A DNA stretch of 64,000 nucleotides, taken from assembly GCA_963681965.1 (NCBI GenBank), contig OY820579.1:992001-1056000 (forward strand), in the 5' to 3' direction. The notes beneath the pieces are model-generated. The model did no database searches. It worked only from the letters and a program-made list of their open reading frames with translations, and was not told where the DNA came from. The stretch's first letter is position 1, and every line of letters begins with the position of its first letter. Below, piece after piece: positions 35,586 through 56,797 of the stretch. The position numbers and the translations under genes were made by a program. Source of the DNA: a bacterium. Its GTDB lineage: Bacteria > Electryoneota > JAOADG01.

Positions 35586-36647
35586 GTGAAAGAAATCGCT
35601 AGAGGTGAGAGTTTGTTCGATAAAGTAAGAGACGCATTGCAGACTGGAAAAGTGGTTCGATTTGCCACGATTGTCGCGACTTCAGGATCAACTCCGGCGC
35701 CACAACAATCGCGGATGGCAATCATCTTCGACGATGGATTGAAAGTGTACGGTACCGTCGGTGGTGGTTGCCTCGATGGTGGTATTCTCGGAAGTCTCGG
35801 TGCAGAATCAGATCATCCGCAAGTGACGATTGCGACCTATTATCTAAATGACGATGAAGGTGAATCCGGATTGATGTGCGGCGGTTCGGTCCTAGTGATG
35901 CAAGAGACACCGGTGTCCGGTATGCTGCCATTGTACGAGCAGATCTGCGAAGCGCTTCTTAGTAATACTCCCACACTCCTTTTGACGTACTGGAATCAAC
36001 ACGACCAATACCGTAAAACTCTTCTGGAATTGGATGGATCGATCCGGGGTGGAGATCCAATTGTTAACGAGCTTCAATCGGAATTAACGAAAGCACGTGA
36101 AAGTTGTATCGCCTCCCGTAAAACGATCGTTCAGGAAAGTAGTGAGTGGAAACTTGTATTGGAATTTCTTGATCCCCAACCGAGATTAATTGTTTTCGGT
36201 GGAGGGCATGTCGGAAAAGTCACGACGCAATGCGCGGCATTGGCTGGATTTCGGGTGACAATCGCTGACGATCGGATCTCATTTGCGAATCGCGATCGAT
36301 TTCCCGAAGCCGAAGAAGTCGTCTGTGACGATTTCAGTACGATCGTCGATCGAATGCGCATCGATCAGCACAGCTATATCGTGATCGTTACACGTGGACA
36401 CCGCCACGATGAATTGATACTGGAACAGGTAATAACGCGATCGCCACGATACATTGGAATGATTGGAAGTAAACGGAAGATCTTACTTACTTATGAACAT
36501 CTGAAAGCACGTGGAATTTCCGAATCAGATCTTCAAAAAGTGCACGCACCGATCGGAATGAAAATCAACGCACAATCGCCAGGCGAGATCGGTGTCGCAA
36601 TTGTTGCCGAATTGATTGCTGTTTGGCGCGGTGCATTAGATCATTGA
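35586..36647 (+). CDS. xdhC: XdhC/CoxI family Moco-binding maturation factor
   Basis: GSTP, GTVGGGC, GLMCGG, IVFGGGHV, IVTRGHRHD, YIGMIGSKRK, APIG..I.A.SPGEI. Confidence 0.93.
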   Translation: MKEIARGESLFDKVRDALQTGKVVRFATIVATSGSTPAPQQSRMAIIFDDGLKVYGTVGGGCLDGGILGSLGAESDHPQVTIATYYLNDDEGESGLMCGGSVLVMQETPVSGMLPLYEQICEALLSNTPTLLLTYWNQHDQYRKTLLELDGSIRGGDPIVNELQSELTKARESCIASRKTIVQESSEWKLVLEFLDPQPRLIVFGGGHVGKVTTQCAALAGFRVTIADDRISFANRDRFPEAEEVVCDDFSTIVDRMRIDQHSYIVIVTRGHRHDELILEQVITRSPRYIGMIGSKRKILLTYEHLKARGISESDLQKVHAPIGMKINAQSPGEIGVAIVAELIAVWRGALDH

Positions 36648-37226
36648 AGAAGTTAATCGGTCGAGAGTATCGCGATCGTTAATATTTAAAAGGATCCCCG
36701 GATCGTTCACTTCTATCGGTAAAGTATCGACTCTCGAATTCCGCAATGCAAGATCCAATCTTCCCGCATCCAGCAAGAGTGTTTGAAAGATCGGTGTGGG
36801 GATGATGATCGGGTGACCGGATCGACCTTGATAGACCGGTTTGATCATTTGCTTCGGATTTGATCGTGCAAGTTCGATCAACTTACTGTAAGTCGTTTCT
36901 TGGATGGCAGGATAATCGACCGGGTTGATCAACACACCGCTACAGTCGCTGAATGAATTGCGACCGAGCAATACCGATGAATACATTCCGCGTTCGGGAT
37001 GGGTATTCACGATAATTGTATCCTCAAGGCACCGGTCTTGTGCCCACTGAAAATACTCCTCGGAAACAATAACGCTCATCCGATCGATCCCCGCAGCGCG
37101 AAGTTTCGATCGAATGAGCGTTAAGAAATCAATACCGTTGATCGTCAATGCCAGTTTCGGTGTACCGATTCGTGTTCCGCTTCCGGCGGCTAGAATCAGC
37201 GCTCCGATGCTGGATCGACCACTCAC
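36636..37226 (-). CDS. mocA: Molybdenum cofactor cytidylyltransferase-like (MocA/YgfJ)
   Basis: ILAAGSGTRIG.PK, GMYSS, PVDYP, GRSGHPII, NIND; XDH-family gene context. Confidence 0.8.
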   Translation of the reverse strand: MSGRSSIGALILAAGSGTRIGTPKLALTINGIDFLTLIRSKLRAAGIDRMSVIVSEEYFQWAQDRCLEDTIIVNTHPERGMYSSVLLGRNSFSDCSGVLINPVDYPAIQETTYSKLIELARSNPKQMIKPVYQGRSGHPIIIPTPIFQTLLLDAGRLDLALRNSRVDTLPIEVNDPGILLNINDRDTLDRLTSSMI

Positions 37227-38680
37227 GATAAATTTACTTCGGCGTTGAATGCTGCGATATCGGCATCAACAGCCGTTACCGCATTGACGATACGTTCACG
37301 CCAATACTCCTGATGCCACTGCTCGTTCAATTCTTCAGACGTCTTACCCTGCTGTTCGATCCAAGTGTAATACTTCAAATTGTGAATAGCTTTTCGGTCG
37401 TAGTAAGATAGCTCTTTGAAGAAATCGATCCGCTGATGCAATAATGATGCGGCATGATCCTGTGCTGCCGCGACGGGTGTATAGCTTCCGAGTTCGGTTG
37501 TCAGTTCCGGCAGGCGCGAGCGATACATATCGGCAGAATCGGTAAAAACCGTGAAGATGAAATCGTTTTCATCCATTTCGTAATAGCGTGCCGTCTTGAT
37601 TGCTGCAAGCAGATTGCAGATACTGGAAATTCCCAGCAACGACAAGCGATCCAACGAAGAATCGTCAATTCCAAGTTTTGTCAGATAGGGTTTCGCAACA
37701 GGTTCGTTGAAGAGGCGCAGAATTCGCATGCAATCTTCATCGTCGATGGCAGCGATACCGTCGGTATTTCTGACATTGTGAACCCACGGAATATGCTTGT
37801 CGCCGATTCCTTCGATCCGATGACCACCAAAGCCGTTCATCAATAACGTTGGACATTGCAAAGCTTCGGTCGCGATAATTTTGACATCGCCGAATTGATG
37901 TTTCAGATAGTCGCCGGCAGCGATCGTCCCTGCAGAACCCGTTGCCGAGATGTATGCCGCCAGTCGCGAACGATCCGCACTCAGGGTTCGGTACACTTCG
38001 TCGATTGCCGGACCTGTGACGTTATAATGAAACATCGGATTGCCGAATTCGGCAAATTGATTGAAGATCACGTATTGCGGATCGTCTTTCAATTCGTTGC
38101 ACTTGTCGTAAATCTCTTTCACATTCGATTCACAACCGGGCGTAGCGATGACTTCGGCACCGATTTCGTGCAGCCACTCGAACCGTTCGCGTGACATTTC
38201 CTGCGGAAGAATCGCAATCGGTTGACAACCAAGAAGCGCACAATCGAATGCGCCGCCGCGACAGTAATTACCAGTCGATGGCCAAACGGCTTTCTGATGT
38301 TCCGGATCGAATTCACCGGATACTAACCGTGGCACTAGACAGCCAAATGCCGCACCGACCTTATGTGCGCCGGTTGGAAAATACTTTCCGACGATCCCGA
38401 CAATGCGAGCACGAACGCCGGAGATCGATGACGGAATTTCGACGTAATTGACTTTTCCGAATCGACCGGTCGACAAATCGTTTTTCCAACTGATCCGAAA
38501 TAAATTTAAGGGATTGATATCCCACAAACCCAAACCGGGCAGCTTCGATTGAATCGATTCCGGAATTGTTTCCGGGTGTCGCATCTGATTGAATGTCGGG
38601 ATGACGATTTTACGCTCACGGCACCGTTTAATTGTGCGCTGCCGGACTTCTTGACGATTTTTTTCTGATTGATTTGACAT
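37223..38680 (-). CDS. PLP-dependent fold-type II enzyme, cysteine-synthase-like
   Basis: PTGAHKVGA (PLP Lys), WPSTGNYCRGG, TGSAGT, HRIEGIG. ATG 38680 preferred over 38737, which overlaps ygeW. Confidence 0.88.
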   Translation of the reverse strand: MSNQSEKNRQEVRQRTIKRCRERKIVIPTFNQMRHPETIPESIQSKLPGLGLWDINPLNLFRISWKNDLSTGRFGKVNYVEIPSSISGVRARIVGIVGKYFPTGAHKVGAAFGCLVPRLVSGEFDPEHQKAVWPSTGNYCRGGAFDCALLGCQPIAILPQEMSRERFEWLHEIGAEVIATPGCESNVKEIYDKCNELKDDPQYVIFNQFAEFGNPMFHYNVTGPAIDEVYRTLSADRSRLAAYISATGSAGTIAAGDYLKHQFGDVKIIATEALQCPTLLMNGFGGHRIEGIGDKHIPWVHNVRNTDGIAAIDDEDCMRILRLFNEPVAKPYLTKLGIDDSSLDRLSLLGISSICNLLAAIKTARYYEMDENDFIFTVFTDSADMYRSRLPELTTELGSYTPVAAAQDHAASLLHQRIDFFKELSYYDRKAIHNLKYYTWIEQQGKTSEELNEQWHQEYWRERIVNAVTAVDADIAAFNAEVNLS

Positions 38681-38693
38681 TTTTTTATCTCGA

Positions 38694-39878
38694 TCAACGT
38701 TGATGGTTGCGTTGGATGATCTGGTCGATCGCTGCAACCGGATTGGCTTTACGGGTCAGGAAAATCATGGCGGCAATTACGAACGGTTTGAATCCAGCTT
38801 CGCGATAGGTATCGAACTTGTAGCGATCAAACACCGTTTGCGCAACTTCGCCATGTTCGCAACTGACTCCGGAAATGTCCGCGGGGAGGCAATGCATATA
38901 CAACGCTTTCCTATTTTTCGTGGCAGCCATTTTCGATTCGTCGCATTCCCACGACTGGTATTTGGCATTGTTCGCGAGACACTCTTTTTCCAATTCTTTC
39001 AATCCCTGTTGGTCGCGATTCTTCAATAATTCGGTGCGACGAACCATCACTTGGAACGGTGCCCACGATTTTGGATAGACAACATCGGCACCTTCGAAAG
39101 CCGCTTCCATCCGATCAGCGACGGTGAACGATCCACCGGATGTGGTGGCATTCTTTTTAGCGATGTCGACAATTTCCGGCAACAGATCGTAACCGGTGGG
39201 ATAAGCCAGTGTCACATCGGCACCATAGCGCGATAGCAGTGAAATGATTCCTTGGGGAACCGACAACGGTTTTCCGTAGCTGGGCGAGTAAGCCCAAGTC
39301 ATGGCGATTTTCTTGCCCCGAAGCGCTTCCAGCGATCCGAAATATGATTTCAGGTGCAGTAAATCGGCAAGCGATTGTGTTGGGTGATCGTAATCGCATT
39401 GCAGATTTACAATGCTTGGTCGTTGCGGTAATACGCCGTTTTCGAACCCTTCCTGAACTGCGGCGCTCACTTCGCGCATGTAACGATTTCCCTCGCCAAG
39501 GTACATATCGTCGCGGATACCGATCGTTTCCGTCAGAAATGAAATCATATTGGCGGTTTCGCGAACCGTCTCGCCATGGGCGATTTGCGATTTGACTTCG
39601 TCTAAATCGGAGAGTCCCAATCCCAGTAAATTTACCGCAGATGCAAAACTGAAACGGGTGCGCGTCGAATTGTCGCGGAAAATTGAGATCCCGAGTCCAG
39701 TATCGAATACTCGCGCCGATACACCGGTTCGATGCAGTTCTTTCAAGATTTCCGCACACAACATGACTGCTTCGAGTTCCTGATCGGTTTGTTCCCATGT
39801 CAATAGGAAATCGCGATTGTAAAACGACTGTTTCAATTCCCGTAAGCGATTTACTTTAGTTTCAAGATTAGTGGTCAT
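38694..39878 (-). CDS. ygeW: Knotted carbamoyltransferase YgeW
   Basis: FRDNSTRTRFS, HGETVRETANMISF, QCDYDHPTQ, WAYSPSYGKPLSVPQG, YPKSWAP, MHCLPAD. Confidence 0.96.
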   Translation of the reverse strand: MTTNLETKVNRLRELKQSFYNRDFLLTWEQTDQELEAVMLCAEILKELHRTGVSARVFDTGLGISIFRDNSTRTRFSFASAVNLLGLGLSDLDEVKSQIAHGETVRETANMISFLTETIGIRDDMYLGEGNRYMREVSAAVQEGFENGVLPQRPSIVNLQCDYDHPTQSLADLLHLKSYFGSLEALRGKKIAMTWAYSPSYGKPLSVPQGIISLLSRYGADVTLAYPTGYDLLPEIVDIAKKNATTSGGSFTVADRMEAAFEGADVVYPKSWAPFQVMVRRTELLKNRDQQGLKELEKECLANNAKYQSWECDESKMAATKNRKALYMHCLPADISGVSCEHGEVAQTVFDRYKFDTYREAGFKPFVIAAMIFLTRKANPVAAIDQIIQRNHQR

Positions 39879-39896
39879 ACACTATTCTCCATTAGG

Positions 39897-40376
39897 TTAT
39901 TTAATTAGATCGTTTGTTTGATAAAATGGTGATGCCGCTTCGATTGCATCGACAATCTGTTGATAGCCGGTACAACGGCAGAGATTTGCCGAAATGGCTT
40001 TCCGGATTTCCGGTCGCGTCGGTTGCGGGTGCTCGGACAAAAATGCGTGGGCAGTCAGCACCATTCCGGGGATGCAGTATCCGCATTGGATCGCTCCCGC
40101 TTGGATAAATGCTGTCTGCAGGGGATGGAGAGCACCATCTTCACGAGTCATTCCTTCGATAGTGAGCACCGATTTGTCAACGATGTCGCGAACTTTGAGG
40201 ATACATGCCTTCTTCGGTTTACCGTCGATCAAGATGGTGCAGGTACCGCAGAACCCTTCGCCGCATCCGTTTTTCGTGCCAGTTAATCTGAGTTCTTCGC
40301 GAAGAAATTCGAGCAGTGACTGGTCTAGTTGCGCTTCATTTAACAAGATCGACTGGCGATTAATCTGCGTGAACAT
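39897..40376 (-). CDS. 2x[2Fe-2S] subunit of molybdenum hydroxylase (CoxS-type)
   Basis: GTKNGCGEGFCGTC...AC; QCGYCIPG...NLCRCTGY. Confidence 0.93.
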   Translation of the reverse strand: MFTQINRQSILLNEAQLDQSLLEFLREELRLTGTKNGCGEGFCGTCTILIDGKPKKACILKVRDIVDKSVLTIEGMTREDGALHPLQTAFIQAGAIQCGYCIPGMVLTAHAFLSEHPQPTRPEIRKAISANLCRCTGYQQIVDAIEAASPFYQTNDLIK

Positions 40377-42657
40377 GCGACACCTCCTCTTTCAGAATGG
40401 GTTGCGCTTGTTCGATCGTAATCGGCGATGAAAAATATCGTTTTCCTGTGGCGTGATAAATCGCATTGGCAATCGCTGGAGCCATCAGTTCATTTGCCGG
40501 TTCGCCAATTCCTTTTGCGCCCGAAGGCGAGAGGGGATCGTTATTTTCAATCACAATTGCCGTTATCTCGGGAACATCGGTAGCACGTGGAATGCGATAT
40601 GTATTATAATTCAACGTCGAAATTTTGCCATCCTTCATCTTCACCTGTTCGTGCAAACCGTAGCCGATACCCATCGCGACACCGCCATAGAATTGCCCCA
40701 AAAGAGAATCGGGTTTGATCGCGCGACCGATATCGTGTGCCGCAACGGCATTGAGCAGTTTCACTTTTCCAGTGCGACGGTTTACTGTTAATTCGACTGC
40801 CTGACAGCCGTAGACCCAAGTGAAGTAAGCGTTGCCCTGTCCGTTCTCCTCATTCCAACTGACGCGAGGCGCTTTGAACACACCCATGGCAAAGGGAAAT
40901 TCCTGTGCCTTTTGCATCGCAGAAATTGCGTTTTCAAATGATATCGATTCGTGCGACGTTGCGGAAATCAGTTGACCATTTTCGAAACGAATTGAGTCGG
41001 GGGTGCAATTCAGTTGCGTTGCAACGACGGTAGCGATTTTCTGTTTCAATTCGCGAGCGGCGTTTACGATCGCTCCGCCACCCATCAGCGTACCGCGCGA
41101 TGCTACGGTTGTTCCGCTGTCGGGAATGGTGGATGTGTTCGGACGGCGATAGCGAATCCGGTCGAGCGAGATCCCTAATTCAGTCGCAAGCAAAGTAACA
41201 AACACCGATTCGGCACCTTGACCATTTTCGTGAATACCGACTTCGAGAACGACCGAGCCGTCGAATTGTACATTGATGATCGCCGCACAGAAGTCAGTGC
41301 CTTCGGCGCCAAGACTCATTCCCCGATAACTCATCGCGAGTCCGATGCCATACAATTCGTCGGATTCTGATTCACCTAATGAGCATCGTTTGATTTTATT
41401 GTCGTAGTCGGATTGCTTTATAACCGCATCAAGCGCTTGTTCCAAGCTGACCGTGTGGGCATCGAGTTTCTGTCCGGTGACGGTTACGCTGTTTTGACGA
41501 ACCATGTTCAAACGGCGGAATTCGATTGGGTCGATATTGAGTTTCTCGGCGGCAATTTCAACCAATTGTTCGATCGCAAAGTTAATTTGCGGCGAGCCGA
41601 AACCGCGCATCGCCCCGGTAAAGACATTATTGGTATATACCCCGTACGTATCGCAGTGGACATGCTCCACCTCATACGGTCCGCAACACTGAACGGTAGA
41701 GCGCCACGTGACCCACGGTGTTACCGAACAATATGCGCCGCCATCGGCAACAATCCGGCATTGCACCGCTTTGATCTTTCCCGCTTCTGACAATCCCATT
41801 TTGTAGTGAATACGATAGGGGTGTCGTTTATAGCTTTCGCGGATCGACCAATCGCGGGCATAGGTCATTTTCACCGGCTTACCGCAAAGCTTTGCTGCTA
41901 ATGCCGCACGGGCGCAGACCACTGCAGCAGTATCGTCTTTACCACCGAAGCCGCCACCCATCACTGTTCCAATTACTTCGACATCGGCTAATTGGACGCC
42001 TAATGTCGACGCGACAAAACGGCGGGTACTGAACGGATGCTGCATACTGCCATAGACTTCAATCACACCATCTGTGCGCGGAACGCAAACAGCTGATTCC
42101 GGTTCAAGATAGGCATGTTCGATCGTTTGAGTCTGGAAATCGCGCTCGATGATCAAGTCGGATTCGGAAAATCCCTCCGCAATATCGCCACGTCGAACAC
42201 GATGTTCGTTAATAATATTCGAGCAGGATTCTTCATGGACGAGTGGAGCGCCGGGAAGAAGCGCTTCTTCCGGATCGAATACTGCCGGGATATCTTCCGC
42301 TTCGATAGTAACTAATTTTGCCGCATCGATCGCTTGTTGCCGTGTGTTTGCAATAACAATCGCAATGACATCGCCGTGATACCGGATTTTCGTATCGGCA
42401 AGTATCCGGAGATCTTTGCGGATTTGCCCGAAATTGACACTGCCGGGGATGTCGGAAGCGGTCAAGACTTTAACCACTCCCGGTGCTTGTCGAGCAGTAC
42501 CGGTTTCGATGTGATGGATAATTGCATGCACGTGATCCGAGTAAACCGGCACGGCATGGAGCATTTCCGGAAACTTCAGATCGTCGGCATACTGCGCGCT
42601 TCCAGTCACTTTCGCGACGGCATCGTTGCGCCAACCGGGAGCGTTTAAATGTTGCAT
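40360..42657 (-). CDS. Xanthine dehydrogenase-family molybdopterin-binding subunit (second, CoxL/XdhD-type)
   Basis: KVTG..YADD, HAYLEPE, SMQHP, GGGFGGKDD, GAMRGFG, VASRGT, GAKGIGEP. Confidence 0.92.
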   Translation of the reverse strand: MQHLNAPGWRNDAVAKVTGSAQYADDLKFPEMLHAVPVYSDHVHAIIHHIETGTARQAPGVVKVLTASDIPGSVNFGQIRKDLRILADTKIRYHGDVIAIVIANTRQQAIDAAKLVTIEAEDIPAVFDPEEALLPGAPLVHEESCSNIINEHRVRRGDIAEGFSESDLIIERDFQTQTIEHAYLEPESAVCVPRTDGVIEVYGSMQHPFSTRRFVASTLGVQLADVEVIGTVMGGGFGGKDDTAAVVCARAALAAKLCGKPVKMTYARDWSIRESYKRHPYRIHYKMGLSEAGKIKAVQCRIVADGGAYCSVTPWVTWRSTVQCCGPYEVEHVHCDTYGVYTNNVFTGAMRGFGSPQINFAIEQLVEIAAEKLNIDPIEFRRLNMVRQNSVTVTGQKLDAHTVSLEQALDAVIKQSDYDNKIKRCSLGESESDELYGIGLAMSYRGMSLGAEGTDFCAAIINVQFDGSVVLEVGIHENGQGAESVFVTLLATELGISLDRIRYRRPNTSTIPDSGTTVASRGTLMGGGAIVNAARELKQKIATVVATQLNCTPDSIRFENGQLISATSHESISFENAISAMQKAQEFPFAMGVFKAPRVSWNEENGQGNAYFTWVYGCQAVELTVNRRTGKVKLLNAVAAHDIGRAIKPDSLLGQFYGGVAMGIGYGLHEQVKMKDGKISTLNYNTYRIPRATDVPEITAIVIENNDPLSPSGAKGIGEPANELMAPAIANAIYHATGKRYFSSPITIEQAQPILKEEVSHVHAD

Positions 42658-43994
42658 AAAATTGCCCCTTCCGGTTCATTTTTTGTGAACTGAAAATTCT
42701 CAATAACCGGTGTTCCCTGAACAAATACATAGGGAAAATTGAGTGTTGACATGAATCCGGGATAAGTTTCATACACACTCATCAGCGACGAAACGACTTG
42801 TTTCCGTTCTCCGTGCAGATCGATCACTGTCAAATCGGCATCGCTTCCGATTGCGATTGTCCCTTTTTGCGGGTACAATTGCAGCACTCGCGCTGGATTC
42901 TCGGACAAATGTCGCGCCATTTTCGGTAGCGACGATTCTTCGGCACCGAATAGTACGTACGCCAAATGCGGAAGCGCTCCGATCCCGGCAATTCCCTTCG
43001 GAGTTTTTCGTACATCATCGGGAAAAGCGCTTTTTCCGACTTTCGAAAATGCGCAATGATCGGTGGCAAATAAATCGATCTGCCCCATGCCCGCGCGAGC
43101 AGCCATGTTACTTACGTTCCGTTTGGGTCGCAGTGGCGGCGAGCAGAGCCAGCGATACCCTTGATCGGAATCTTGCAACATCCGGTCATCGAGAAACAAA
43201 TAATGCGGTGCAGTCTCGCAAGTGATCCGGCAGGTTTCTTTCGCAGTCAATATCCGATCAACTGTACGAGCACAAGAGACGTGGACGATATGAACTGTAG
43301 CGTCATACTTCTCCGCCAATTCAATAATCGCTTCGACTGCGGCTAGCTCGACTACTTCCGGTCGTGTGTAAGCATGGGTAATTGGCTTCGACCAGTCCCA
43401 TTCTTGTAATGTCGAAATTGTCTGTAAAGAGGCTTCGTCTTCGCAATGAAACAGAAATGTGATCGGTTGGTTACGAAATCGTTCCATGATATTACCGATC
43501 GTTTCGTAATCGATATACAGTCCGGCTTCGCGATAGGTGGTATAAAATTTGAAGCTGCGAAATCCGGAATCGATCAGATGCTCACAGACGCTCATCGTCT
43601 CTTCGTCGAACCGTGTCGGTGTAAGATGCCAACCGATTGAGCAGTAGGAATGACGAACCGCTTTATCGATGGCAGATTGAATCGCAGAACTAATCGGCTG
43701 TTCGGGAGATTGAGTAATGAAACTCCAGAGTGTGGTAATACCGTTGCGGACGGCAACTTCCGATCCCGAAGCGTAACTATCGGCAAGTGGAATACCGCCA
43801 ATTACATCGTCAAGATGAACGTGAAGATCGATCATTCCGGGGAGAATATATTTACCGGTCAGATCGATTATCGGATCGGTGGTATCTATCGGCGTGGTTT
43901 CGATTGCTGCGATTTTTCCATCGGCGATAAGCAGATCCGATTGAATCAATCCAGAAGCGGTAACCAACGTTCCATTTTGCAACCACCGTTTCAT
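42645..43994 (-). CDS. hydA: Dihydropyrimidinase/hydantoinase (HydA/HyuA-like)
   Basis: LPGMIDLHVH, SFKFY, FHCE, HIVHVS, ETAPHYL, CSPPLR, ATDHC, GSDADL. Confidence 0.85.
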   Translation of the reverse strand: MKRWLQNGTLVTASGLIQSDLLIADGKIAAIETTPIDTTDPIIDLTGKYILPGMIDLHVHLDDVIGGIPLADSYASGSEVAVRNGITTLWSFITQSPEQPISSAIQSAIDKAVRHSYCSIGWHLTPTRFDEETMSVCEHLIDSGFRSFKFYTTYREAGLYIDYETIGNIMERFRNQPITFLFHCEDEASLQTISTLQEWDWSKPITHAYTRPEVVELAAVEAIIELAEKYDATVHIVHVSCARTVDRILTAKETCRITCETAPHYLFLDDRMLQDSDQGYRWLCSPPLRPKRNVSNMAARAGMGQIDLFATDHCAFSKVGKSAFPDDVRKTPKGIAGIGALPHLAYVLFGAEESSLPKMARHLSENPARVLQLYPQKGTIAIGSDADLTVIDLHGERKQVVSSLMSVYETYPGFMSTLNFPYVFVQGTPVIENFQFTKNEPEGAILCNI

Positions 43995-45229
43995 GATCGT
44001 TCCAATCCCAATTTCTTCGCGACTTCGGAAAGTGAATCGGATGTCGGTTCAATCGGATCCGGCAACATTATCGATCGTTCGGCGGCTGGTATGTCTTTCA
44101 GACCATGTCCGGTTACAAGCAAGACAATTCGCTCGTGTCGATCAAGTAATTGTTGTTCACGACAGCGGTGTAATCCCGCTAAGCTGGCTGCTGCAGCCGG
44201 TTCGGCGAATATTCCTGAAGCACCGGCAAGCTGGTATTGCGCTGCCAGAATTTCTTGATCCGATACGATCACCGAGGATCCTTTCGATTCTTCGATCGCA
44301 CGTTTTGCTAGATGAGCATTGCTGGGAATCGAAACCGAAATCGAATCGGCAACGGTAGCAGGATGCGAAGCATCGGTATATTTCCCGGTCGAGAAATAAT
44401 GATGGATCGCATTGGATGATTCCGCCTGTACACAAATCAAGCGCGGTAGTTGATCCGAAAATCCTGCCGCTTTCCAGTCGCGAAATGCTTTATGCACACC
44501 AGCTAGAATCACACCATCACCGACCGGAATCAGAATTGCATCGGGAACAGATCCGCCTTGTTGCAAGATTTCGCAGCCGACAGTTTTCTTTCCTTCAATC
44601 GTCAATGGGTGATAGGCGGTATTTCGATTGATCCCGGGATATCGTTGGGTCCATTCCAGTGAGAGGCGGAAGGCATCGTCGTAAGTTCCCTTAACCCGAA
44701 CAACTTGAGCACCGCAGATCAACATCTGTACCAATTTCGCTTTGGGTGCATTTTCGGGTACGAAAATCAACGCTTGTTTTCCGGCAGCCGCGCAAACGGC
44801 TGCAAGCGCACTGGCGGCATTCCCGGTGGATGCAGTTACCACCGTCGATTCCTGTAAGCGGTTCGCTTCGGCGACTACCAGATAGGAAGCACGATCCTTC
44901 AGCGATCCACTGGGATTTTGTCCGTCGTTTTTGATCCAGAGTTGATCGAATCCCGTCACCTTGCATAATCTGGGTGATCGAAAGAATGGCGTATGTCCCA
45001 CCGGATAACTGGGCAAATATTCCGATTCGATTGGTAGCCATTGTTGCCAGTCCCGGCTGTGGGGATCGACTCGCCGGCGAAGTGCTTCCGGATCGAATTC
45101 TACTTCCAATACGCCACGAAGTGGAATTCCCGGGCGATAATTCTCTTCGCAATCGGGGCATAAATACCGTACTTCATCGCGCTTGAATTCGCGACCGCAT
45201 TCGGAACACTTGTAGTGAAATGGTATCAT
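43991..45229 (-). CDS. Threonine-synthase-like PLP enzyme with N-terminal Zn ribbon
   Basis: CSEC...CPDC, NPSGSLKDR (PLP Lys), ASTGNA, EGKKT, PVGDG, TGHGLKD. Confidence 0.88.
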   Translation of the reverse strand: MIPFHYKCSECGREFKRDEVRYLCPDCEENYRPGIPLRGVLEVEFDPEALRRRVDPHSRDWQQWLPIESEYLPSYPVGHTPFFRSPRLCKVTGFDQLWIKNDGQNPSGSLKDRASYLVVAEANRLQESTVVTASTGNAASALAAVCAAAGKQALIFVPENAPKAKLVQMLICGAQVVRVKGTYDDAFRLSLEWTQRYPGINRNTAYHPLTIEGKKTVGCEILQQGGSVPDAILIPVGDGVILAGVHKAFRDWKAAGFSDQLPRLICVQAESSNAIHHYFSTGKYTDASHPATVADSISVSIPSNAHLAKRAIEESKGSSVIVSDQEILAAQYQLAGASGIFAEPAAAASLAGLHRCREQQLLDRHERIVLLVTGHGLKDIPAAERSIMLPDPIEPTSDSLSEVAKKLGLERS

Positions 45230-45235
45230 TTCGTT

Positions 45236-46453
45236 TTATCCGATGCCATTCAATCGTGCAACCAATGCCGCATAAAAAGCGGAACAAGCGCTCAGGTGAT
45301 CGACCGGACACGCTTCGTTGGGTGCATGGGCGAATACTTCGTTGCCTGGACCCATTCCGAGACAGGGAATTCCGTGCATACCGGCGATGGCGACACCATT
45401 AGTTGAAAATGTCCATTTATCGACTTTCGGTGGTTTCGATAAGGTTTGCTCATAAGCAAAAATGGCATCTTTCAAGTATGACGATGTTTCAGGCATTACC
45501 CACGTTGGATAATATTTTTCGGTAGGATAAATCTTACCGGTATAAGCCGGCTCTTCATACGTCAATACTTCGACTTCCGCATCGGGATAACCAGCTCGGG
45601 CTGCGGCATCTTTCACTTCAGCAACGGCGATATCTTTGGTCTCGCCGTAAGTGAGTCGTCGATCAAGCTGGATGCTCGCGGCATCGGGAACGGCACATTG
45701 CGATGGGGATGAAAAGAATACTTGCGTTACGGTTACCGAGCCTTTACCGAGGAATGGATCGTCGGCAAGACGTTGATGCAATTTCTCGATTTCGAGAGCG
45801 ATCTTGGAAATTTTGTAGATCGCGTTGTCGCCGCGTTCCGGTGCAGAACCGTGCGCGGAAAGACCTTTCACCTTAATCATAATCTCCATCCGACCGCGAT
45901 GACCGCGATAGAGATTAAGATTCGTCGGTTCCGTGATCACGACCAATTCCGGTCGGACGTTGTCTTCCTTGATCAGGTGTTGCCAGCAGAGACCGTCGCA
46001 ATCTTCTTCCATTACCGTGCCGGTGAACAGCAGCGTGAATTCACGATTCAAGCCGAGTTCGCGAATGATCTTCGCAGCATACACCATGCTTGCCATACCA
46101 CCTTTTTGATCGACGGTACCCCGACCCCATATCTGTCCATCTTCGATTTTCGGTTGAAAGGGATCGAAATTCCAGAGCGACATATCGCCGGGGTAAACCG
46201 TATCGATATGTGCATCGAATGCGATTATGCGTTTTCCATTACCAACGCGACCGATGATCGAGCCAAGGGCGTCGACGCGGACTTCATCGAATCCGACGGC
46301 GGTCATTTTCTTTGCAATGACATCGATCACCGCTTTTTCCTTACCCGAAAACGAAGGGGTACGGATCAAATCCATTAGAAATTCTGCTGTTTCCAGTTCG
46401 TATTGTTTTGCCAATTGATGAATTTTCTGATACACAGTGATTTTCCTTTCCAA
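45236..46453 (-). CDS. ygeY: YgeY family M20 hydrolase
   Basis: FDAHIDTV, GRGTVDQKGG, MEEDCDGLCW, TEPT, RGHRGR, HGSAPERG, WTFSTNGV, AHAPNE. GTG 46435 is an alternative start. Confidence 0.94.
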   Translation of the reverse strand: MERKITVYQKIHQLAKQYELETAEFLMDLIRTPSFSGKEKAVIDVIAKKMTAVGFDEVRVDALGSIIGRVGNGKRIIAFDAHIDTVYPGDMSLWNFDPFQPKIEDGQIWGRGTVDQKGGMASMVYAAKIIRELGLNREFTLLFTGTVMEEDCDGLCWQHLIKEDNVRPELVVITEPTNLNLYRGHRGRMEIMIKVKGLSAHGSAPERGDNAIYKISKIALEIEKLHQRLADDPFLGKGSVTVTQVFFSSPSQCAVPDAASIQLDRRLTYGETKDIAVAEVKDAAARAGYPDAEVEVLTYEEPAYTGKIYPTEKYYPTWVMPETSSYLKDAIFAYEQTLSKPPKVDKWTFSTNGVAIAGMHGIPCLGMGPGNEVFAHAPNEACPVDHLSACSAFYAALVARLNGIG

Positions 46454-46459
46454 TTTCGC

Positions 46460-47806
46460 TTAAAAGCGTTCCCACAATCGACTTGCCGCTTCACTCGATT
46501 TCGCCGCGACCTCCACTTCGTCGATGGGGATAGTAATACGTTTGTCGTCCATCAGGATGCGACCATTGACAATCGTCGTATTCACTGGAGCATTTGCGAT
46601 GCCGAACACGAGATGCCCCATCAGTGTCTCATTTGTCAAAGGTGTCGGAGTACAATAGTCGACCAAAATGATGTCGGCAGGTGCTCCTTCGTGGATTGTA
46701 CCGATCGGCAGATCCCACAGTCGGGATGCGATTTTACGATTATTTTCGAACAGTGTTTTTACGACTTCGACAAATCCTACCGAGGGGTTGCGATGCGAAA
46801 GATGCTGCAACCACAATGCCGTTCGCAGCTCTTCCGGCATTCGCACGGTCATGGCGTCGCTTCCCAGCCCGACGATGATTCCGGCTTGAGATAAAGCGAT
46901 GATGTCGGCAGCGCCTACGGCATTGTTCATATTCGATTGCGGATTGTGAACAACGATCGTGTTGGTTTCCGCGAGCAATTCGCGTTCGCGATCATCGATG
47001 TGAACGCAGTGGGCGGCAATAGAATTGCTACCAAGAATACCGGCATGATACAAGCGTTCGATTACGCGTTGTTTGTTCGCCTGAAGCGATTGTTCCTGAT
47101 CGGCAAGGTCTTCGGCGACGTGTATATGAAAACCAGTGGCAAGCGAGTTACCGATGGCAGACGCTTCCGCCAGCGTTTCGTCACCGATCGTGAAAGATGC
47201 ATGAAGACCGAACAATCCCCGTAGATAAGGATTATTGGATTTCTGACAAGCAGCGATGAATTCGGCATTTTCAGAAAGTCCTTCGCGAGCGATCGTTTCA
47301 CCGTCGCGATCGGATACTTCGTAACAGAGACATCCGCGAATACCGAATTCTGTCAGTGCTTGCGCGATTTTATTCAGTGAGCCGGTTATGGCATGTGGAC
47401 TGGCATGATGATCGATAAATGTCGTGGTTCCGCTTCGAATCGCATCGAACAGAATCGCTGCGGTAGAATAGTACACGTCGTCGAGTGTGAGTGCCTTATC
47501 GAGTCGCCACCACAAATTATTTAATACTTCGAGAAAGTTCTTCGACGGGTTGGCTTTTCCAAAACCGCGCGCAAAGGTGCTATAAAAATGCATGTGTGCA
47601 TTGATGTAGCCTGGCATTACTAATTTATGTTTGGCATCGATAGTCCGATCGTATGTGCCGGTAAAACTTGCATCCGGTCCGATTCGACTCACGACACCGT
47701 TTTCGATCAGAAGCGAATGTCCTTCCAGTACCGACCAGTCGCCGCCAAGCGGTAGGATTGTTCCATTTCGAATTAATATCGATTGATTAAGATCATGTGA
47801 AGACAT
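46460..47806 (-). CDS. ssnA: Putative aminohydrolase SsnA
   Basis: MPGYINAHMHFYS..ARG, LWWRLD, IDHHASP, CYEVSDRDG, GLHASFT, HIHVAE, HNPQSNMNNAVG. Confidence 0.93.
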   Translation of the reverse strand: MSSHDLNQSILIRNGTILPLGGDWSVLEGHSLLIENGVVSRIGPDASFTGTYDRTIDAKHKLVMPGYINAHMHFYSTFARGFGKANPSKNFLEVLNNLWWRLDKALTLDDVYYSTAAILFDAIRSGTTTFIDHHASPHAITGSLNKIAQALTEFGIRGCLCYEVSDRDGETIAREGLSENAEFIAACQKSNNPYLRGLFGLHASFTIGDETLAEASAIGNSLATGFHIHVAEDLADQEQSLQANKQRVIERLYHAGILGSNSIAAHCVHIDDRERELLAETNTIVVHNPQSNMNNAVGAADIIALSQAGIIVGLGSDAMTVRMPEELRTALWLQHLSHRNPSVGFVEVVKTLFENNRKIASRLWDLPIGTIHEGAPADIILVDYCTPTPLTNETLMGHLVFGIANAPVNTTIVNGRILMDDKRITIPIDEVEVAAKSSEAASRLWERF

Positions 47807-50308: not shown

Positions 50309-52645
50309 CTACTTACGATTAATCGACTTTTTGGCATGTTCATGAGCCAATAAGACGGCATTAGGCGTTGCTGGCAATGATAACTGAATCGGAACACTGT
50401 GATTGACCGCTGCCGATAGCGCATCTTTAATTGCAAAGAAAACGGCTTCGCCGTAAATCAATGGTGGTTCACCGATAGCTTTGCTTTGGTAGACACTGGC
50501 ATGCTCGCGATCGCAATCTACCATATCCACTATAAACGTTTCCGGTAGATCTTTGATCGTGGGGATTTTATAGGTAGACGGCGATACCGCTAGATATTCA
50601 CCGGAGACCGGATGAAAAGCGAGTTCTTCGAACGTACACCAACCCATGCCTTGAATGAACGCGCCTTCAATTTGACCGCGATCAATTTCCGGATTAAGCG
50701 ATCGTCCGGTTTCGTGAACGATGTGTGTTGATACGATGCGGAAGGTTCCATCCATCAATTTGAGTTCAACCACTGCTAATGCACAACCGAATACAAAATA
50801 AGCGAACGGCGAGCCATGGAATGCGACTCGATCGAATACTAGGTTCGGGGTTCGATAATAACCGTGTGCACCCAACGCAATTCGATTCATGTAGGCATAG
50901 TGAACGACTTCCGGAAAAGTTAAGATGTGCTCGGGAGCAGTTCGGGAGTAAATCGTATCGGCTTCGAAAACGATTTCATCCGGTGAAACTTCAACATCCC
51001 ATTTCTCACGATAGAGCAAAATCGCTTGATCAGTCAGTCGGTCTCGGAGAATCTTCGCGGCGATTCGTGCCGCGTTCCCATTGATATCCGACCCGGAAGA
51101 GGCTGCCGTTGGCGATGCATTGCCTACGCGTTTCGTATTGGCAGTTTCAACGCGAATTCGCGAAAGCGAAACACCTAATTCGCGTGCAACCACTTGCGCC
51201 ACCTTCGTATTGAGTTCTTGACCCATTTCAATACCGCCGTGGCTCAAGGAAATCGAACCATCGGTATAGATCCAAACCAGTGCCGAACCCTGATTCAAAA
51301 ACGTCGCAGTAAATGAGATCCCAAATTTGGTTGGCATTACGCCAATACCGCGCTTAACGTCATGGTGCAATAGGTTGAAGTGATTTACTTCGGTTGTCAC
51401 TCGATCGTATTCGGCATCAGTACGCAATCGCTCCAATAATTCGACGGTTGCCGCCTCGTGAACTTGCTGACCGAAGGGAGTAGTCTGACCTTCCGAGTAA
51501 GAATTCATAATCCGGATCGTGAATGGATCAATCTTCAGCATTTCTGCAATGCGAGTAATTGCGCTCTCAATCGCAAAAATGCCTTGAGGTGCGCCAAAGC
51601 CACGCATCGCTGTATTGGGTGGAAGATTGGTGCGGCAAGCCCGACCGGTGATTTTTACGTTTGGGATGAAATAGCAGTTGTCGGCGTGGAGAACAGCACG
51701 ATCGAGAATTGCCAGCGATAAATCACAGTAGGCACCACCATTCGCATTCAATTCGACTTCGTACGCTGTGATCTTGCCACTCTTGGTAAAACCGATGCGG
51801 TAGCGGATATCGAAGGGGTGTCGTTTCCCGGTCCAGCGCATATCTTCGTGCCGGGTCAATATGAGTTCGGTCGGTTTTCCGGTCACTGCCGCTGCCAGAG
51901 CTGTCAAACACGACCAAAGCACCGGAGTGCGTTCTTTACCGCCAAACCCTCCACCAAGACGCGGTACTTCGATTGTGATATCCTTGCTATGTTTACCTAA
52001 GACCTTCGCACAAATCTCCTGTACTTCCGAAGTACTTTGTGTCGCCGATTGTAAAACGATCTCGCCGTTTTCACCCGGGATCGCAATACAGCGTTGCGTT
52101 TCTAGATAGAAATGTTCCTGTCCGGCAAGATGCAATTCGTCTTCCAGAATATGATCCGCTGCAGCAAATCCTTCTTCGATATTGCCGCGAAGAACATGGC
52201 GTGCGGGAACATACAATAAGTCCCGTTCGATTGCTTCGGCAGTGGTCAGAACCGGATGTAAGTTTTCATACTCGACGTTAACCTTACTTGCCGCGAGTTC
52301 GGCGATGCGAGCGGTCTCTGCCACAACCAGTGCGATCGGTTGTCCGATATATTGAACTTCATCGACTGGAAAAAGCGGTTCATCGAGTAGTACATGCCCG
52401 ATCATATTTTCGCCGGGAATGTCGCGGTGCGTGAGTATTGCAATCACACCCGGAATTGATTGGGCTGCGGATGCATCGATCGAGCGGATTTTCGCATGAG
52501 CATACTGACTTGGAACTGGTTTGAGAGCCAAGCATTGTGGAGATGGTAACATCTCACCGATGAAGCGCGACTGTCCGGTAACGTGAAGATTTCCACTCAA
52601 GTGCAGCGGTGTATTCGATTGCTTGGACGTCGGAGGCGTTCTCAT
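50309..52645 (-). CDS. xdhB: Xanthine dehydrogenase molybdopterin subunit (Rhodobacter/Pseudomonas/eukaryote-like)
   Basis: GQEHFYLETQ, RLGGGFGGKE, NTAMRGFGAPQG, KFGISFT, GIEMGQ, SPTAASSGSD, YKIP, SKAIGEPP. Confidence 0.93.
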   Translation of the reverse strand: MRTPPTSKQSNTPLHLSGNLHVTGQSRFIGEMLPSPQCLALKPVPSQYAHAKIRSIDASAAQSIPGVIAILTHRDIPGENMIGHVLLDEPLFPVDEVQYIGQPIALVVAETARIAELAASKVNVEYENLHPVLTTAEAIERDLLYVPARHVLRGNIEEGFAAADHILEDELHLAGQEHFYLETQRCIAIPGENGEIVLQSATQSTSEVQEICAKVLGKHSKDITIEVPRLGGGFGGKERTPVLWSCLTALAAAVTGKPTELILTRHEDMRWTGKRHPFDIRYRIGFTKSGKITAYEVELNANGGAYCDLSLAILDRAVLHADNCYFIPNVKITGRACRTNLPPNTAMRGFGAPQGIFAIESAITRIAEMLKIDPFTIRIMNSYSEGQTTPFGQQVHEAATVELLERLRTDAEYDRVTTEVNHFNLLHHDVKRGIGVMPTKFGISFTATFLNQGSALVWIYTDGSISLSHGGIEMGQELNTKVAQVVARELGVSLSRIRVETANTKRVGNASPTAASSGSDINGNAARIAAKILRDRLTDQAILLYREKWDVEVSPDEIVFEADTIYSRTAPEHILTFPEVVHYAYMNRIALGAHGYYRTPNLVFDRVAFHGSPFAYFVFGCALAVVELKLMDGTFRIVSTHIVHETGRSLNPEIDRGQIEGAFIQGMGWCTFEELAFHPVSGEYLAVSPSTYKIPTIKDLPETFIVDMVDCDREHASVYQSKAIGEPPLIYGEAVFFAIKDALSAAVNHSVPIQLSLPATPNAVLLAHEHAKKSINRK

Positions 52646-54138: not shown

Positions 54139-54202
54139 TGCTATTGTCCGATTCCTGAAAAAAGTAAATAAATAGAAAGAATTCAATTCGAATAGGTATC
54201 AC

Positions 54203-56790: not shown

Positions 56791-56797
56791 GTGAGTT

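Follow-up and report, generated by a model that had tools for sequence, protein, structure and literature searches.

The window, i.e., the analyzed stretch of 64,000 nucleotides, harbours an operon predicted to encode the reductive (2,8-dioxopurine) urate pathway, that is, the oxygen-free breakdown of uric acid. In this operon, two different fold-type II PLP enzymes, one related to threonine synthase (ThrC-like) and one representing a long form of cysteine synthase (CysK-like), stand where diaminopropionate ammonia-lyase (DpaL/YgeX) is expected. Very probably, the two serve this pathway exclusively and are inherited together, in a widespread variant which lacks YgeX/DpaL and relies on them for the terminal PLP chemistry. 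The substrate of the pair is most likely 2,3-diaminopropionate (DAP) or albizziin.

The published pathway, worked out only in 2025 with E. coli, C. sporogenes and C. difficile and now being engineered into uricolytic probiotics, comprises YgeW, YgeY and SsnA as well as YgfK, HyuA, XdhD and YgeX, and ends in pyruvate with YgeX alone as last enzyme. The two papers describing the pathway make no mention of a ThrC-like/CysK-like pair.

Operon structure

Both genes were found on the minus strand at the positions assigned by the preliminary description (Table 1), the ThrC-like gene between the genes for YgeY and the hydantoinase and the CysK-like gene after that for YgeW. They belong to a tightly packed operon, of which the products YgeW, YgeY and SsnA score above the NCBIfam cut-offs; the further members (YgfK-like reductase, hydantoinase and two molybdenum hydroxylases) score below the equivalog cut-offs. 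This is the same operon type as that containing YgeX/DpaL in E. coli and C. sporogenes.

Table 1 Features of the urate cluster (positions refer to the window)
Feature	Position	Strand	Evidence
MocA-like molybdenum cofactor cytidylyltransferase	36636..37226	-	Start overlaps stop of CysK-like gene
Long-form CysK-like fold-type II PLP enzyme, 485 aa	37223..38680	-	Pfam PALP 62 bits only
YgeW, knotted carbamoyltransferase	38694..39878	-	NF005538 660 bits (cut-off 453); TIGR03316 627 bits (cut-off 500)
Second molybdenum hydroxylase, XdhD position	39897..42657	-	Mo subunit 40360-42657, 2Fe-2S subunit 39897-40376
Hydantoinase/dihydropyrimidinase-like amidohydrolase, HyuA position	42645..43994	-	TIGR02033 273 bits (cut-off 393)
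ThrC-like fold-type II PLP enzyme, 412 aa	43991..45229	-	Pfam PALP 242.9 bits
YgeY, M20 hydrolase	45236..46453	-	NF009555 548 bits (cut-off 321)
SsnA aminohydrolase	46460..47806	-	NF005540 529 bits (cut-off 444)
YgfK-position reductase, 831 aa	47807..50302	-	NF009410 225 bits
XdhB (Mo), xanthine-dehydrogenase type	50309..52645	-	TIGR02965 818 bits (cut-off 849.5)
XdhA (FAD/2Fe-2S), xanthine-dehydrogenase type	52642..54186	-	TIGR02963 412 bits (cut-off 467)

Translational coupling is evident for YgeY/ThrC-like/hydantoinase and for YgeW/CysK-like/MocA: the ATG of the ThrC-like gene follows the YgeY stop by 6 nt and its TGA overlaps the hydantoinase ATG (ATGA), and the CysK-like ATG lies 13 nt past the YgeW stop. 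The CysK-like open reading frame extends from a TTG (37223-38737), but the ATG at 38680 agrees with the N-termini of 19 homologues. The reductase in YgfK position joins a GltD-like N-terminal half to a PreA/dihydroorotate dehydrogenase-like C-terminal half (PreA model NF006183, 179 bits on residues 431-823) and attains only 159 bits with the YgfK model TIGR03315 (cut-off 835). From its XdhD position, the second molybdenum hydroxylase, which is kept within the cluster in 51/69 loci, is a candidate for the urate/2,8-dioxopurine enzyme. The cluster contains no carbamate kinase gene; one arcC-like gene is located elsewhere in the genome (C1:3261549-3262472; 346.7 bits, cut-off 358.25). A TauE-family gene is found about 5.4 kb downstream of the cluster.

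Absence of DpaL/YgeX and of threonine and cysteine biosynthesis genes

The genome is complete (one contig, 4.24 Mb, 99.9 % completeness) and yields two matches to PF00291, both being the window genes. Since no fold-type II PLP enzyme besides the pair is encoded, it represents a particularly clean case. A search of the genome with the DpaL/YgeX model TIGR03528 (cut-off 532.25) gave a best score of 27.2 bits for the ThrC-like protein and no match for the CysK-like one, and the DpaL model NF006058 is not among the best 25 of 41 family matches for the ThrC-like protein. The pair thus occupies the place of a missing DpaL, as had been supposed. Although all three are fold-type II PLP enzymes, neither window protein is homologous to YgeX/DpaL at the family level (27 versus 532 bits), and the single DpaL enzyme contrasts with two enzymes here, from the ThrC-type and the CysK-type subfamilies.

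The preliminary description had noted that partner genes of threonine or cysteine biosynthesis are lacking nearby. Indeed, none is present in the window, and genome-wide searches retrieved neither homoserine dehydrogenase (hom, PF00742; 0 matches, with positive controls in 14/14 genomes), homoserine kinase (thrB, TIGR00191; best 32 bits, cut-off 168) nor serine acetyltransferase (cysE, TIGR01172; best 44.5 bits, cut-off 210.65). Judged from its gene content, the organism appears to possess neither a threonine nor a cysteine synthesis pathway. A status as the only thrC and cysK of the genome had been named beforehand as one part of an argument against a catabolic role. They are indeed the only such genes, but this does not refute the idea, since the enzymes making the substrates (Hom, ThrB, CysE) are missing as well; for the same reason, the two are not regarded as housekeeping ThrC and CysK. 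The automated labels "threonine synthase" and "cysteine synthase" of the homologues are very probably wrong, as had been suspected. Urease is likewise absent from the genome.

The ThrC-like enzyme

The ThrC-like protein retains the PLP lysine (K111) and the STGN loop (S134-T135-G136-N137), as claimed before. Its best PDB matches are threonine synthases (2d1f, 2zsj, 1uim, 6cgq; 169-180 bits), with which it shares, besides lysine and loop, the C-terminal TGHGLKD motif; the lysine motif reads SLKDRAS versus SFKDRG in threonine synthase. The best NCBIfam match is a ThrC model of the PRK08197 type (NF006050, 241 bits, under the cut-off of 303). The protein has an N-terminal zinc ribbon (CxxC...CxxC) like that model, the family of which presumably carries one; Pfam at E up to 1 gave only weak zinc-ribbon hints for this N-terminus. 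With 187.8 bits, the protein still exceeds the cut-off of the thrC model TIGR00260 (167.1), which is a counterpoint to the functional assignment favoured below. The predicted structure is of only moderate quality (pLDDT 73.4).

In T. thermophilus ThrC (1uim), residues T88, N154, S155, R160 and N188 are taken here to be the ligands of the O-phosphohomoserine phosphate. In the alignment, T88 is replaced by A138, R160 by T210 and N188 by D238 of the ThrC-like protein, and N154 and S155 align with N203 and T204. Going by these residue roles, the phosphate-binding set of threonine synthase appears not to be retained. A138, N203, T204, T210 and D238 are invariant in 14/14 close homologues. Across 14 rows covering three architectures, the R160 position is never Arg and the N188 position always Asp (14/14); the T88 position is Ala in 13/14, with one locus (L131) of the two divergent architectures retaining Thr. 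Furthermore, phylogenetic analysis places 17 cluster-linked ThrC-like proteins apart from five canonical ThrC sequences (99/97 support), and, differing from threonine synthase, ThrC-like proteins occur in genomes without hom. Cysteate synthase, a ThrC descendant using a three-carbon substrate, provides a precedent for such a change of function.

The CysK-like enzyme

The best NCBIfam matches of the CysK-like protein remain far below the cut-offs (cysK TIGR01139, 109.2 bits versus 350.95; TIGR01136, 105.6 bits versus 344.15). A core resembling CysK/CBS is combined with helical extensions of about 100 aa (N-terminal) and 110 aa (C-terminal) and an insert of about 20 aa, which distinguish it from CysK. 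Foldseek with the structural model retrieved CysK as top matches, with TM-scores of 0.77-0.80 over the target but 0.51-0.52 over the query. Pfam at E up to 1 revealed no match on the extensions, and the ESM Atlas returned only unnamed "pyridoxal-phosphate dependent enzyme" clusters.

Shared with the CysK/CBS core are the PLP lysine, the Asn loop, the Gly-rich phosphate loop and the GISS serine. The PLP lysine, K107, aligns with the GSLKDR lysine of a near-canonical CysK, but the surrounding motif is PTGAHKVG versus GS(V/L)KDR in CysK. Lysine and STGN loop are thus kept in this protein too, and K107, S135-T136-G137-N138 and S245-T252 are invariant in 20/20 sequences. Homologues from other phyla share 69-74 % identity. 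A putative Fe-S or metal site formed by invariant cysteines was discarded, as just three of them are retained in the f4 variant.

DcsD, the O-ureido-L-serine synthase of D-cycloserine biosynthesis, belongs to the CysK family and handles a ureido-bearing beta-substituent. In chemical terms, it may serve as a precedent for activity of a CysK-type enzyme on albizziin (beta-ureidoalanine). However, DcsD is described as a biosynthetic, short-form enzyme from another gene context, whereas the CysK-like enzyme is a long form in a urate cluster.

Occurrence in other genomes

The pair is found precisely where DpaL is missing: scores above the DpaL cut-off were obtained in 0/6 genomes with the cluster and in 0/79 genomes of the phylum. 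In 10/79 phylum genomes, a gene resembling DpaL is present that scores 231-312 bits and thus stays below the cut-off. It is not part of the cluster, since 8/10 carriers lack the pair and the other two have it on another contig. Likewise, none of 98 loci contains a DpaL-type open reading frame, the best scores (≤45 bits) being those of the ThrC-like proteins themselves.

A search for separate housekeeping genes, suggested by the preliminary description, found none in the present genome, but did so in the five other cluster-bearing ones. Three of these possess hom, and all three also a canonical ThrC scoring 254-318 bits versus 178-197 bits for the ThrC-like protein; the two without hom have the ThrC-like gene alone and no second ThrC. 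A separate CysK-type gene is present in 5/5 (333-445 bits; four above the cut-off, the fifth with 333 bits), beside which the CysK-like gene scores about 105 bits.

For the study of synteny, 258 relatives provided 80 loci centred on the ThrC-like gene, and each gene was counted only where the flank was long enough. YgeY was found in 57/73, SsnA in 56/69, YgeW in 46/59 and the CysK-like gene in 45/59, the remaining 14/59 showing none at the threshold used. Of 12 regions centred on the CysK-like gene in the phylum of the window, 11 contain the ThrC-like gene, and the contig of the twelfth ends early. Among the 79 genomes of this phylum, 21 encode the ThrC-like and 14 the long CysK-like protein, which is replaced by a short CysK-type gene in the other seven. 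The phyla in which the pair recurs include Verrucomicrobiota, Ignavibacteriota/Bacteroidota, Acidobacteriota, KSB1, Myxococcota and Planctomycetota besides the window's own small phylum; with dozens of loci in other phyla, the arrangement is not due to chance.

Three to four genes separate the ThrC-like from the CysK-like gene in the main architecture, and the two lie side by side in the f4 and f5/f6 families as well as in the Myxococcota loci. A third, compact architecture again pairs the ThrC-like gene with a CysK-type gene, which adjoins YgeY rather than the carbamoyltransferase and encodes a near-canonical CysK (320 bits, cut-off 351). In loci L062, L067 and L077, YgeY and the ThrC-like gene are the only cluster genes within the fetched flanks; the neighbours in L062, L067 and a lone ThrC-like locus (L059) are unrelated or unknown genes. 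One Myxococcota locus (L061) combines the pair with an XdhC/MocA-type fusion and a 4Fe-4S protein, which gave no further hint at function. Ten distant full-length relatives (32-46 % identity) bear generic names only.

Consequences for annotation and pathway surveys

Metabolic reconstructions relying on the synthase labels would erroneously attribute the synthesis of threonine and cysteine to such organisms. A published neighbourhood analysis marked "YgeX" by PF00291, and surveys of this kind would be blind to the difference between DpaL and the pair. Going by the roughly 100 related loci, many environmental anaerobes would end the urate pathway differently, by two PLP enzymes. A published commentary lists the stereochemistry of the pathway and the order of ureido cleavage as open, to which the pair would offer a direct handle.

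Proposed functions and alternatives

From genomic context, the absent alternatives, the separate clade and the residue changes, the following substrates and reaction types are proposed. The ThrC-like enzyme would have descended from threonine synthase by rebuilding of the phosphate pocket (T88A, R160T and N188D) and would act as a beta-eliminating lyase converting the DAP released by YgeY to pyruvate and ammonia. The long CysK-like protein would be a second beta-eliminating or beta-replacing enzyme, its substrate being YgeW-made albizziin or the other DAP enantiomer. As possible divisions of the chemistry, the preliminary description had named elimination from D- versus L-DAP, elimination of urea from albizziin and salvage by beta-replacement. 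This complete assignment is considered moderately probable. On a more tentative note, the pair may comprise two new activities, a ThrC-derived DAP ammonia-lyase and a long CysK-type lyase, racemase or beta-replacement catalyst for albizziin or the opposite enantiomer. If so, these would provide the 2,8-dioxopurine pathway with a second ending, widespread in environmental bacteria, and characterizing them would settle the order in which the ureido groups are released as well as the stereoisomer passing through the pathway.

That two enzymes are present where E. coli uses one is a counterpoint to the proposed assignment. So are the 14/59 loci without a CysK-like gene at the threshold used, the three loci (L062, L067, L077) with YgeY and the ThrC-like gene as sole cluster genes within the fetched flanks, and the moderate quality of the ThrC-like structural model. 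DpaL acts on both D- and L-DAP according to published work. An obvious second base for D-substrates is evident in neither the ThrC-like nor the CysK-like enzyme, both carrying Thr at the position which we take to be Asp120 in DpaL and Ser84 in serine racemase; the DpaL mechanism uses two bases. Urea set free from albizziin by the CysK-like enzyme would be lost to an organism devoid of urease, which weighs mildly against urea release.

Ordinary threonine and cysteine synthases lying in a purine operon by accident are highly improbable. They would agree with the status as sole thrC-like and cysK-like genes, the TIGR00260 score and the names of homologues in public records; however, hom, thrB and cysE are lacking, the hom-bearing genomes carry another, better scoring ThrC, the five other genomes all have another CysK-type gene (333-445 bits), synteny with urate-pathway genes is kept across phyla, the phosphate-site residues of the ThrC-like protein are replaced, and the CysK-like protein attains 109 bits against a cut-off of 351. 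Scarcely more convincing is a pair functioning only as a complex, or with one member as non-catalytic regulatory partner in the manner of CysK binding CysE. The strict co-occurrence in three architectures and the direct adjacency in the f4, f5/f6 and Myxococcota loci would fit, but PLP lysine and cofactor loops are invariant in both proteins and three to four genes intervene in the main architecture; a complex prediction (score 0.00, mark 0.32) was counted neither way.

An exchange of roles, with the CysK-like protein as DAP ammonia-lyase and the ThrC-like one in an accessory step (racemization of DAP or albizziin, or albizziin elimination), appears unlikely, even though the CysK-like gene directly follows ygeW, i.e., takes the place of ygeX in the E. 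coli order, presumably ygeW-ygeX-ygeY-hyuA. Its very high conservation across phyla (69-74 % identity), the ready formation of aminoacrylate by CysK-fold enzymes and the ureido side chain of albizziin, about as long as that of O-phosphohomoserine, also speak for such an exchange. Against it stand the three loci (L062, L067, L077) with YgeY and the ThrC-like gene but no CysK-type gene found nearby, the wider occurrence of the ThrC-like gene in the phylum (21/79 genomes versus 14 with the long CysK-like gene and seven with the short CysK-type one), and the Asp at the N188 position, which fits a cationic leaving group. Rather unlikely, too, is an altered end product, with one enzyme using aminoacrylate formed from DAP or albizziin for beta-replacement, so that the C3 unit would be recovered in the form of cysteine or serine rather than released as pyruvate, and the other being a plain lyase. 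CysK-family enzymes are beta-replacement catalysts, the partner in the compact architecture is a near-canonical CysK (320 bits versus 351), and the present genome has no other CysK/CysE route to cysteine. Yet 5/5 other genomes possess a further CysK gene scoring above or close to the cut-off and would not need such a salvage, the cluster is devoid of sulfur-assimilation genes (the TauE-family gene lying downstream of it), and the published pathway ends in pyruvate.

Another counterpoint to the proposed assignment of DAP to the ThrC-like enzyme and of albizziin or the other enantiomer to the CysK-like one is that gene order does not equal reaction order: the compact architecture has its CysK-type gene beside that for YgeY.

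Operon organization

Between 54186 and 36636, the minus strand carries all long ORFs, which follow one another closely or overlap slightly, and reading with Pfam and NCBIfam yielded the gene order compiled below. The ATG of the ThrC-like gene lies 6 nt past the stop codon of ygeY, its own stop codon overlaps the start of the hydantoinase gene (ATGA), and the ATG of the CysK-like gene is located 13 nt past the ygeW stop. ORF map, family assignments and tight junctions agree with the coordinates and neighbours given for both PLP genes in the preliminary description. Downstream of the mocA-like gene follow genes for XdhC, MoaA, MoaC/Mog, MoeA, a MOSC protein and TauE.

Genes of the operon and further features (window positions unless contig C1 is stated; bit scores with curated cut-offs in brackets)
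Feature	Position	Strand	Score
XdhA-type FAD/2Fe-2S subunit	52642-54186	-	TIGR02963, 412 (467)
XdhB-type Mo subunit	50309-52645	-	TIGR02965, 818 (849.5)
831-aa reductase, GltD-like half + PreA-like half fused	47807-50302	-	NF009410, 225
SsnA	46460-47806	-	529 (444)
YgeY	45236-46453	-	548 (321)
ThrC-like protein, 412 aa	43991-45229	-	TIGR00260, 187.8 (167.1)
Hydantoinase-like amidohydrolase	42645-43994	-	TIGR02033, 273 (393)
Second Mo subunit	40360-42657	-	below equivalog cut-offs
2Fe-2S subunit	39897-40376	-	below equivalog cut-offs
YgeW	38694-39878	-	660 (453)
CysK-like protein, 485 aa	37223-38680	-	TIGR01139, 109 (351)
MocA-like protein	36636-37226	-	Pfam/NCBIfam reading, no key score
HisKA_3 histidine kinase (734 aa) and LuxR-type response regulator	54586-57463	+	
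1283-aa PcRGLX-like protein	27156-31007	-	
2938-aa protein, type-IX sorting domain	18284-27100	+	
408-aa protein, type-IX sorting domain	13520-14746	-	
Carbamate-kinase-like protein	C1:3261549-3262472		346.7 (358.25)

The reductase in the position of YgfK is a single polypeptide, the PreA/dihydroorotate-dehydrogenase-like half of which carries 4Fe-4S motifs; on the YgfK model it reaches only 159 bits (cut-off 835). A fused GltD-like and PreA-like layout is also that of mammalian dihydropyrimidine dehydrogenase. Two separate molybdenum hydroxylases are encoded in the same operon, one of the XdhAB type (50309-54186) and one formed by a Mo and a 2Fe-2S subunit (39897-42657) without an FAD subunit of its own, with the subunits of both scoring below the equivalog cut-offs. 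Since the second one is conserved alongside the PLP pair, it represents a candidate urate/2,8-dioxopurine enzyme.

The histidine kinase and response regulator genes are oriented divergently from the operon start, and their products are candidate regulators of the cluster. The PcRGLX-like gene abuts the Mo-cofactor genes; together with the C-terminal sorting domains for type-IX secretion in two further proteins, its product points to the Fibrobacterota-Chlorobiota-Bacteroidota group of phyla.

Relation to the reductive urate pathway

The operon belongs to the family of reductive urate pathway clusters. According to two 2025 studies, urate is initially reduced to 2,8-dioxopurine by XdhD/XdhAC, followed by further reduction by YgfK and ring opening to ureidomethyl-hydantoin by SsnA. 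HyuA then forms 2,3-diureidopropionate, from which YgeW releases one of the ureido groups in the form of carbamoyl phosphate, YgeY hydrolyses the remaining one, and YgeX (DpaL) finally converts 2,3-diaminopropionate (DAP) to pyruvate and ammonia. DAP builds up in ygeX mutants of E. coli or C. sporogenes. A commentary lists as open whether the intermediate is albizziin (beta-ureidoalanine) or 3-amino-2-ureidopropionate, and likewise the stereochemistry, for which an R (= D) configuration is proposed. In most gut clusters, carbamate kinase adjoins ygeW according to the published work.

The terms "threonine synthase" and "cysteine synthase" do not occur in the accessible text of either pathway paper, and in the neighbourhood analysis described there for one of them, "YgeX" was marked simply by PF00291 (PALP, fold-type II PLP enzymes). 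Such a marker would score the ThrC-like and CysK-like genes of the present cluster as YgeX. No description of the PLP pair in urate clusters was found in a search of the literature on anaerobic urate and DAP genes that covered main-text sections of the pathway papers.

Absence of DpaL and of other fold-type II PLP enzymes

The genome (single contig of 4,244,867 bases, 99.91 % complete) yielded at best 27 bits on the DpaL model TIGR03528 (cut-off 532). Whole-genome searches retrieved the ThrC-like gene as the only match to thrC (TIGR00260), the two PLP genes of the window as the only matches to cysK (TIGR01139; neither over the cut-off), and the same two as the only matches to PF00291 (10 candidates scored). 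Homoserine dehydrogenase (PF00742) had no match in the genome (control matched in 14 of 14 named genomes), and the best scores for thrB (judged by the TIGR00191 family) and cysE (TIGR01172) were 32 bits (cut-off 168) and 44.5 bits (cut-off 211), respectively. The PLP pair is not the housekeeping ThrC and CysK. The preliminary description had regarded it as adverse to its idea if these were the only thrC and cysK of the genome; this is literally the case, but has no force against the idea, because the organism cannot make O-phosphohomoserine (thrB judged by TIGR00191 only) or O-acetylserine. The window thereby adds a natural control, as the genome is complete, encodes no fold-type II PLP enzyme besides the pair and lacks the threonine and cysteine precursor pathways.

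With only two PF00291 genes, this complete 4.24-Mb genome encodes no TrpB, IlvA/TdcB, CysK/M or canonical ThrC, which, together with the lack of hom, thrB and cysE, implies several amino-acid auxotrophies despite a free-living genome size. Two further genomes of the phylum (G049, G022) likewise possess the pair as their only PALP genes.

Separate housekeeping genes were found among five further cluster genomes compared via loci L043, L045, L080, L014 and L008. Each of the three hom-bearing genomes encodes a separate ThrC (254-318 bits vs 178-197 bits for the ThrC-like gene), adjoining hom in one case, while the two genomes without hom possess the ThrC-like gene only. CysK exceeded the cut-off in four of the five and reached 333 bits in the fifth; the CysK-like gene is also present in each (about 105-109 bits; 89 bits in G005). 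DpaL over the cut-off was found in none of the five.

Conservation of the PLP pair

The closest relatives of the ThrC-like protein (63-66 % identity) are labelled "threonine synthase" (Verrucomicrobiota), and those of the CysK-like protein (69-74 %) "cysteine synthase" or "pyridoxal-phosphate dependent enzyme", e.g., in Ignavibacteria. A pattern scan with one genome per species yielded 299 stretches, 258 of which encode relatives, and 80 loci were kept, labelled Verrucomicrobiota, Ignavibacteriota, Bacteroidota, KSB1, Acidobacteriota, Planctomycetota, Myxococcota and others. The window proteins were scored against six-frame ORFs of these loci (thresholds 400 bits; 600 for reductase and Mo subunit; 250 for hydantoinase), and counts refer to loci with enough flank around the ThrC-like gene. 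On this basis, YgeY was found in 57 of 73 loci, SsnA in 56 and the second Mo subunit in 51 of 69, the reductase in 48 of 61, and YgeW (46), the CysK-like protein (45) and the hydantoinase (22) in the respective fractions of 59. Part of the misses are due to frameshift-split genes (e.g., L009, L010, L015), others are real differences. The PLP pair is co-inherited, and no DpaL-type ORF was detected in any of 98 loci, where the ThrC-like proteins themselves ranked highest on the model with no more than 45 bits. The observation in the preliminary description of two PLP genes where DpaL is expected is confirmed.

In many Verrucomicrobiota clusters the ThrC-like gene is directly followed by the Mo subunit, skipping the hydantoinase; clusters of this kind either have HyuA encoded elsewhere or employ a different ring opening.

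Among 79 species genomes of the window's own phylum, the long CysK-like gene is present in 14, the ThrC-like gene in 21 and a YgeW-like gene in 19, and DpaL over the cut-off in none. Regions around CysK-like matches were taken from 12 of the 13 other matching genomes (G077 was left out due to a match at the contig start); a ThrC-like gene is present in 11 of these, and the remaining region belongs to a contig of 8 kb that ends before such a gene would be reached. A second architecture (family f4, four regions) encodes, in this order, a Mo subunit, SsnA-like protein, YgeY, a distant carbamoyltransferase and the CysK-like and ThrC-like proteins, so that the latter two genes are adjacent. In the third, compact one (families f5/f6), the order is SsnA-like protein, ThrC-like protein, a short, near-canonical CysK-type protein (320 bits, cut-off 351), YgeY-like protein and an OTC/YgeW-like transferase; L128-L130 carry the full set, L131 and L133 only part of it. 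From the three architectures, the ThrC-like protein with a partner of the CysK superfamily therefore emerges as the constant element. Near the compact five-gene cluster (L128-L133, genomes G050-G056) no reductase or Mo enzyme is encoded, and in L128 ftsK and a PBP gene lie on one flank. The substrate of this cluster may not be urate.

Sequence features of the PLP enzymes

Almost the full length of the ThrC-like protein can be aligned with the solved threonine synthases 2d1f, 2zsj, 1uim and 6cgq (169-180 bits). With 1uim, K61 corresponds to K111, S84-T85-G86-N87-T88 to S134-T135-G136-N137-A138, N154 and S155 to N203 and T204, R160 to T210, and N188 to D238. Residues T88, N154, S155, R160 and N188 of Thermus thermophilus ThrC are presumably the ligands of the substrate phosphate; structural work by Omi and colleagues in 2003 and Murakawa and colleagues in 2011 reportedly assigned them. 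Replacement of Thr by Ala, Arg by Thr and Asn by Asp is found without exception in the close homologues (14 of 14). In an alignment of 14 cluster-linked rows from all three architectures, Arg is absent throughout at the R160 position, Asp occupies the N188 position in all, and Ala the T88 position in 13 (Thr in L131), whereas the canonical ThrC of a hom-bearing genome retains STGNT, NPARIEGQKT and VGNAGN. A branch with 99/97 support in a maximum-likelihood tree (unrooted, three rows with long branches) parts 17 cluster-linked proteins from 5 canonical hits. Remodelling of the pocket is clade-specific. A pocket devoid of the arginine and equipped with an aspartate would fit a cationic or neutral leaving group (beta-ammonium of DAP, ureido) better than phosphate. 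The predicted model of the protein is only moderate (pLDDT 73.4).

In the CysK-like protein, K107 aligns with the GSLKDR lysine of the short CysK-type proteins, and PLP lysine, STGN loop, Gly-rich loop and GISS serine are invariant in 20 of 20 sequences. The early reading that both proteins keep the PLP lysine and STGN loop is therefore accurate. The AlphaFold model (pLDDT 81.9, pTM 0.87) matches CysK and CBS cores with TM-scores of 0.77-0.80 over the target, and extensions of about 100 N-terminal and 110 C-terminal residues form helices without a match.

Possible functions of the PLP pair

Neither PLP enzyme is a member of the DpaL family; the ThrC-like protein departs from ThrC in defining features, the CysK-like protein from CysK in most of those considered. 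The closest known function is that of YgeX, and we infer that the pair performs the PLP-dependent end of the urate pathway. Preferably, the ThrC-like protein would serve as DAP ammonia-lyase acting after YgeY, their genes being adjacent in most loci and the sole cluster members detected nearby in three. The CysK-like protein may represent a second, beta-eliminating or beta-replacing enzyme for albizziin as product of YgeW or for the other enantiomer; its gene comes after ygeW in the main and f4 architectures and in the arrangement of Acidobacteria. Against a confident split stand the differing gene order of the compact form, the lack of an obvious second base for D-substrates in either protein, and the loss of any urea freed from albizziin, as urease is absent from the genome (best 20 bits). 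Also, the sole carbamate-kinase-like gene scores just below the cut-off and is located 2.2 Mb from the cluster. The interpretation in the preliminary description is partly supported: the general idea of a pair in the place of DpaL, with synthase labels that are very probably misleading, holds, and the divisions of chemistry it suggested are possible readings.

Relatives outside complete clusters

YgeY and the ThrC-like protein are the sole cluster members within the fetched flanks of L062, L067 and L077, and the ThrC-like gene stands alone in L059. In two Myxococcota MAGs (L061, L066) the two PLP genes lie back to back, with none of ygeW, ygeY and ssnA within 10 kb, and adjoin genes for a 466-aa XdhC-like/MobA-like NTP transferase fusion and a 674-aa 4Fe-4S protein. 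An exhaustive representative search retrieved relatives of the CysK-like protein in 330 clusters (E ≤1e-30), many of them fragments. The anaerobic protist Aduncisulcus paluster encodes proteins of 562-571 aa annotated as "cysteine synthase, putative" (P0246/P0393), which share 46 % identity with the long CysK-like protein.
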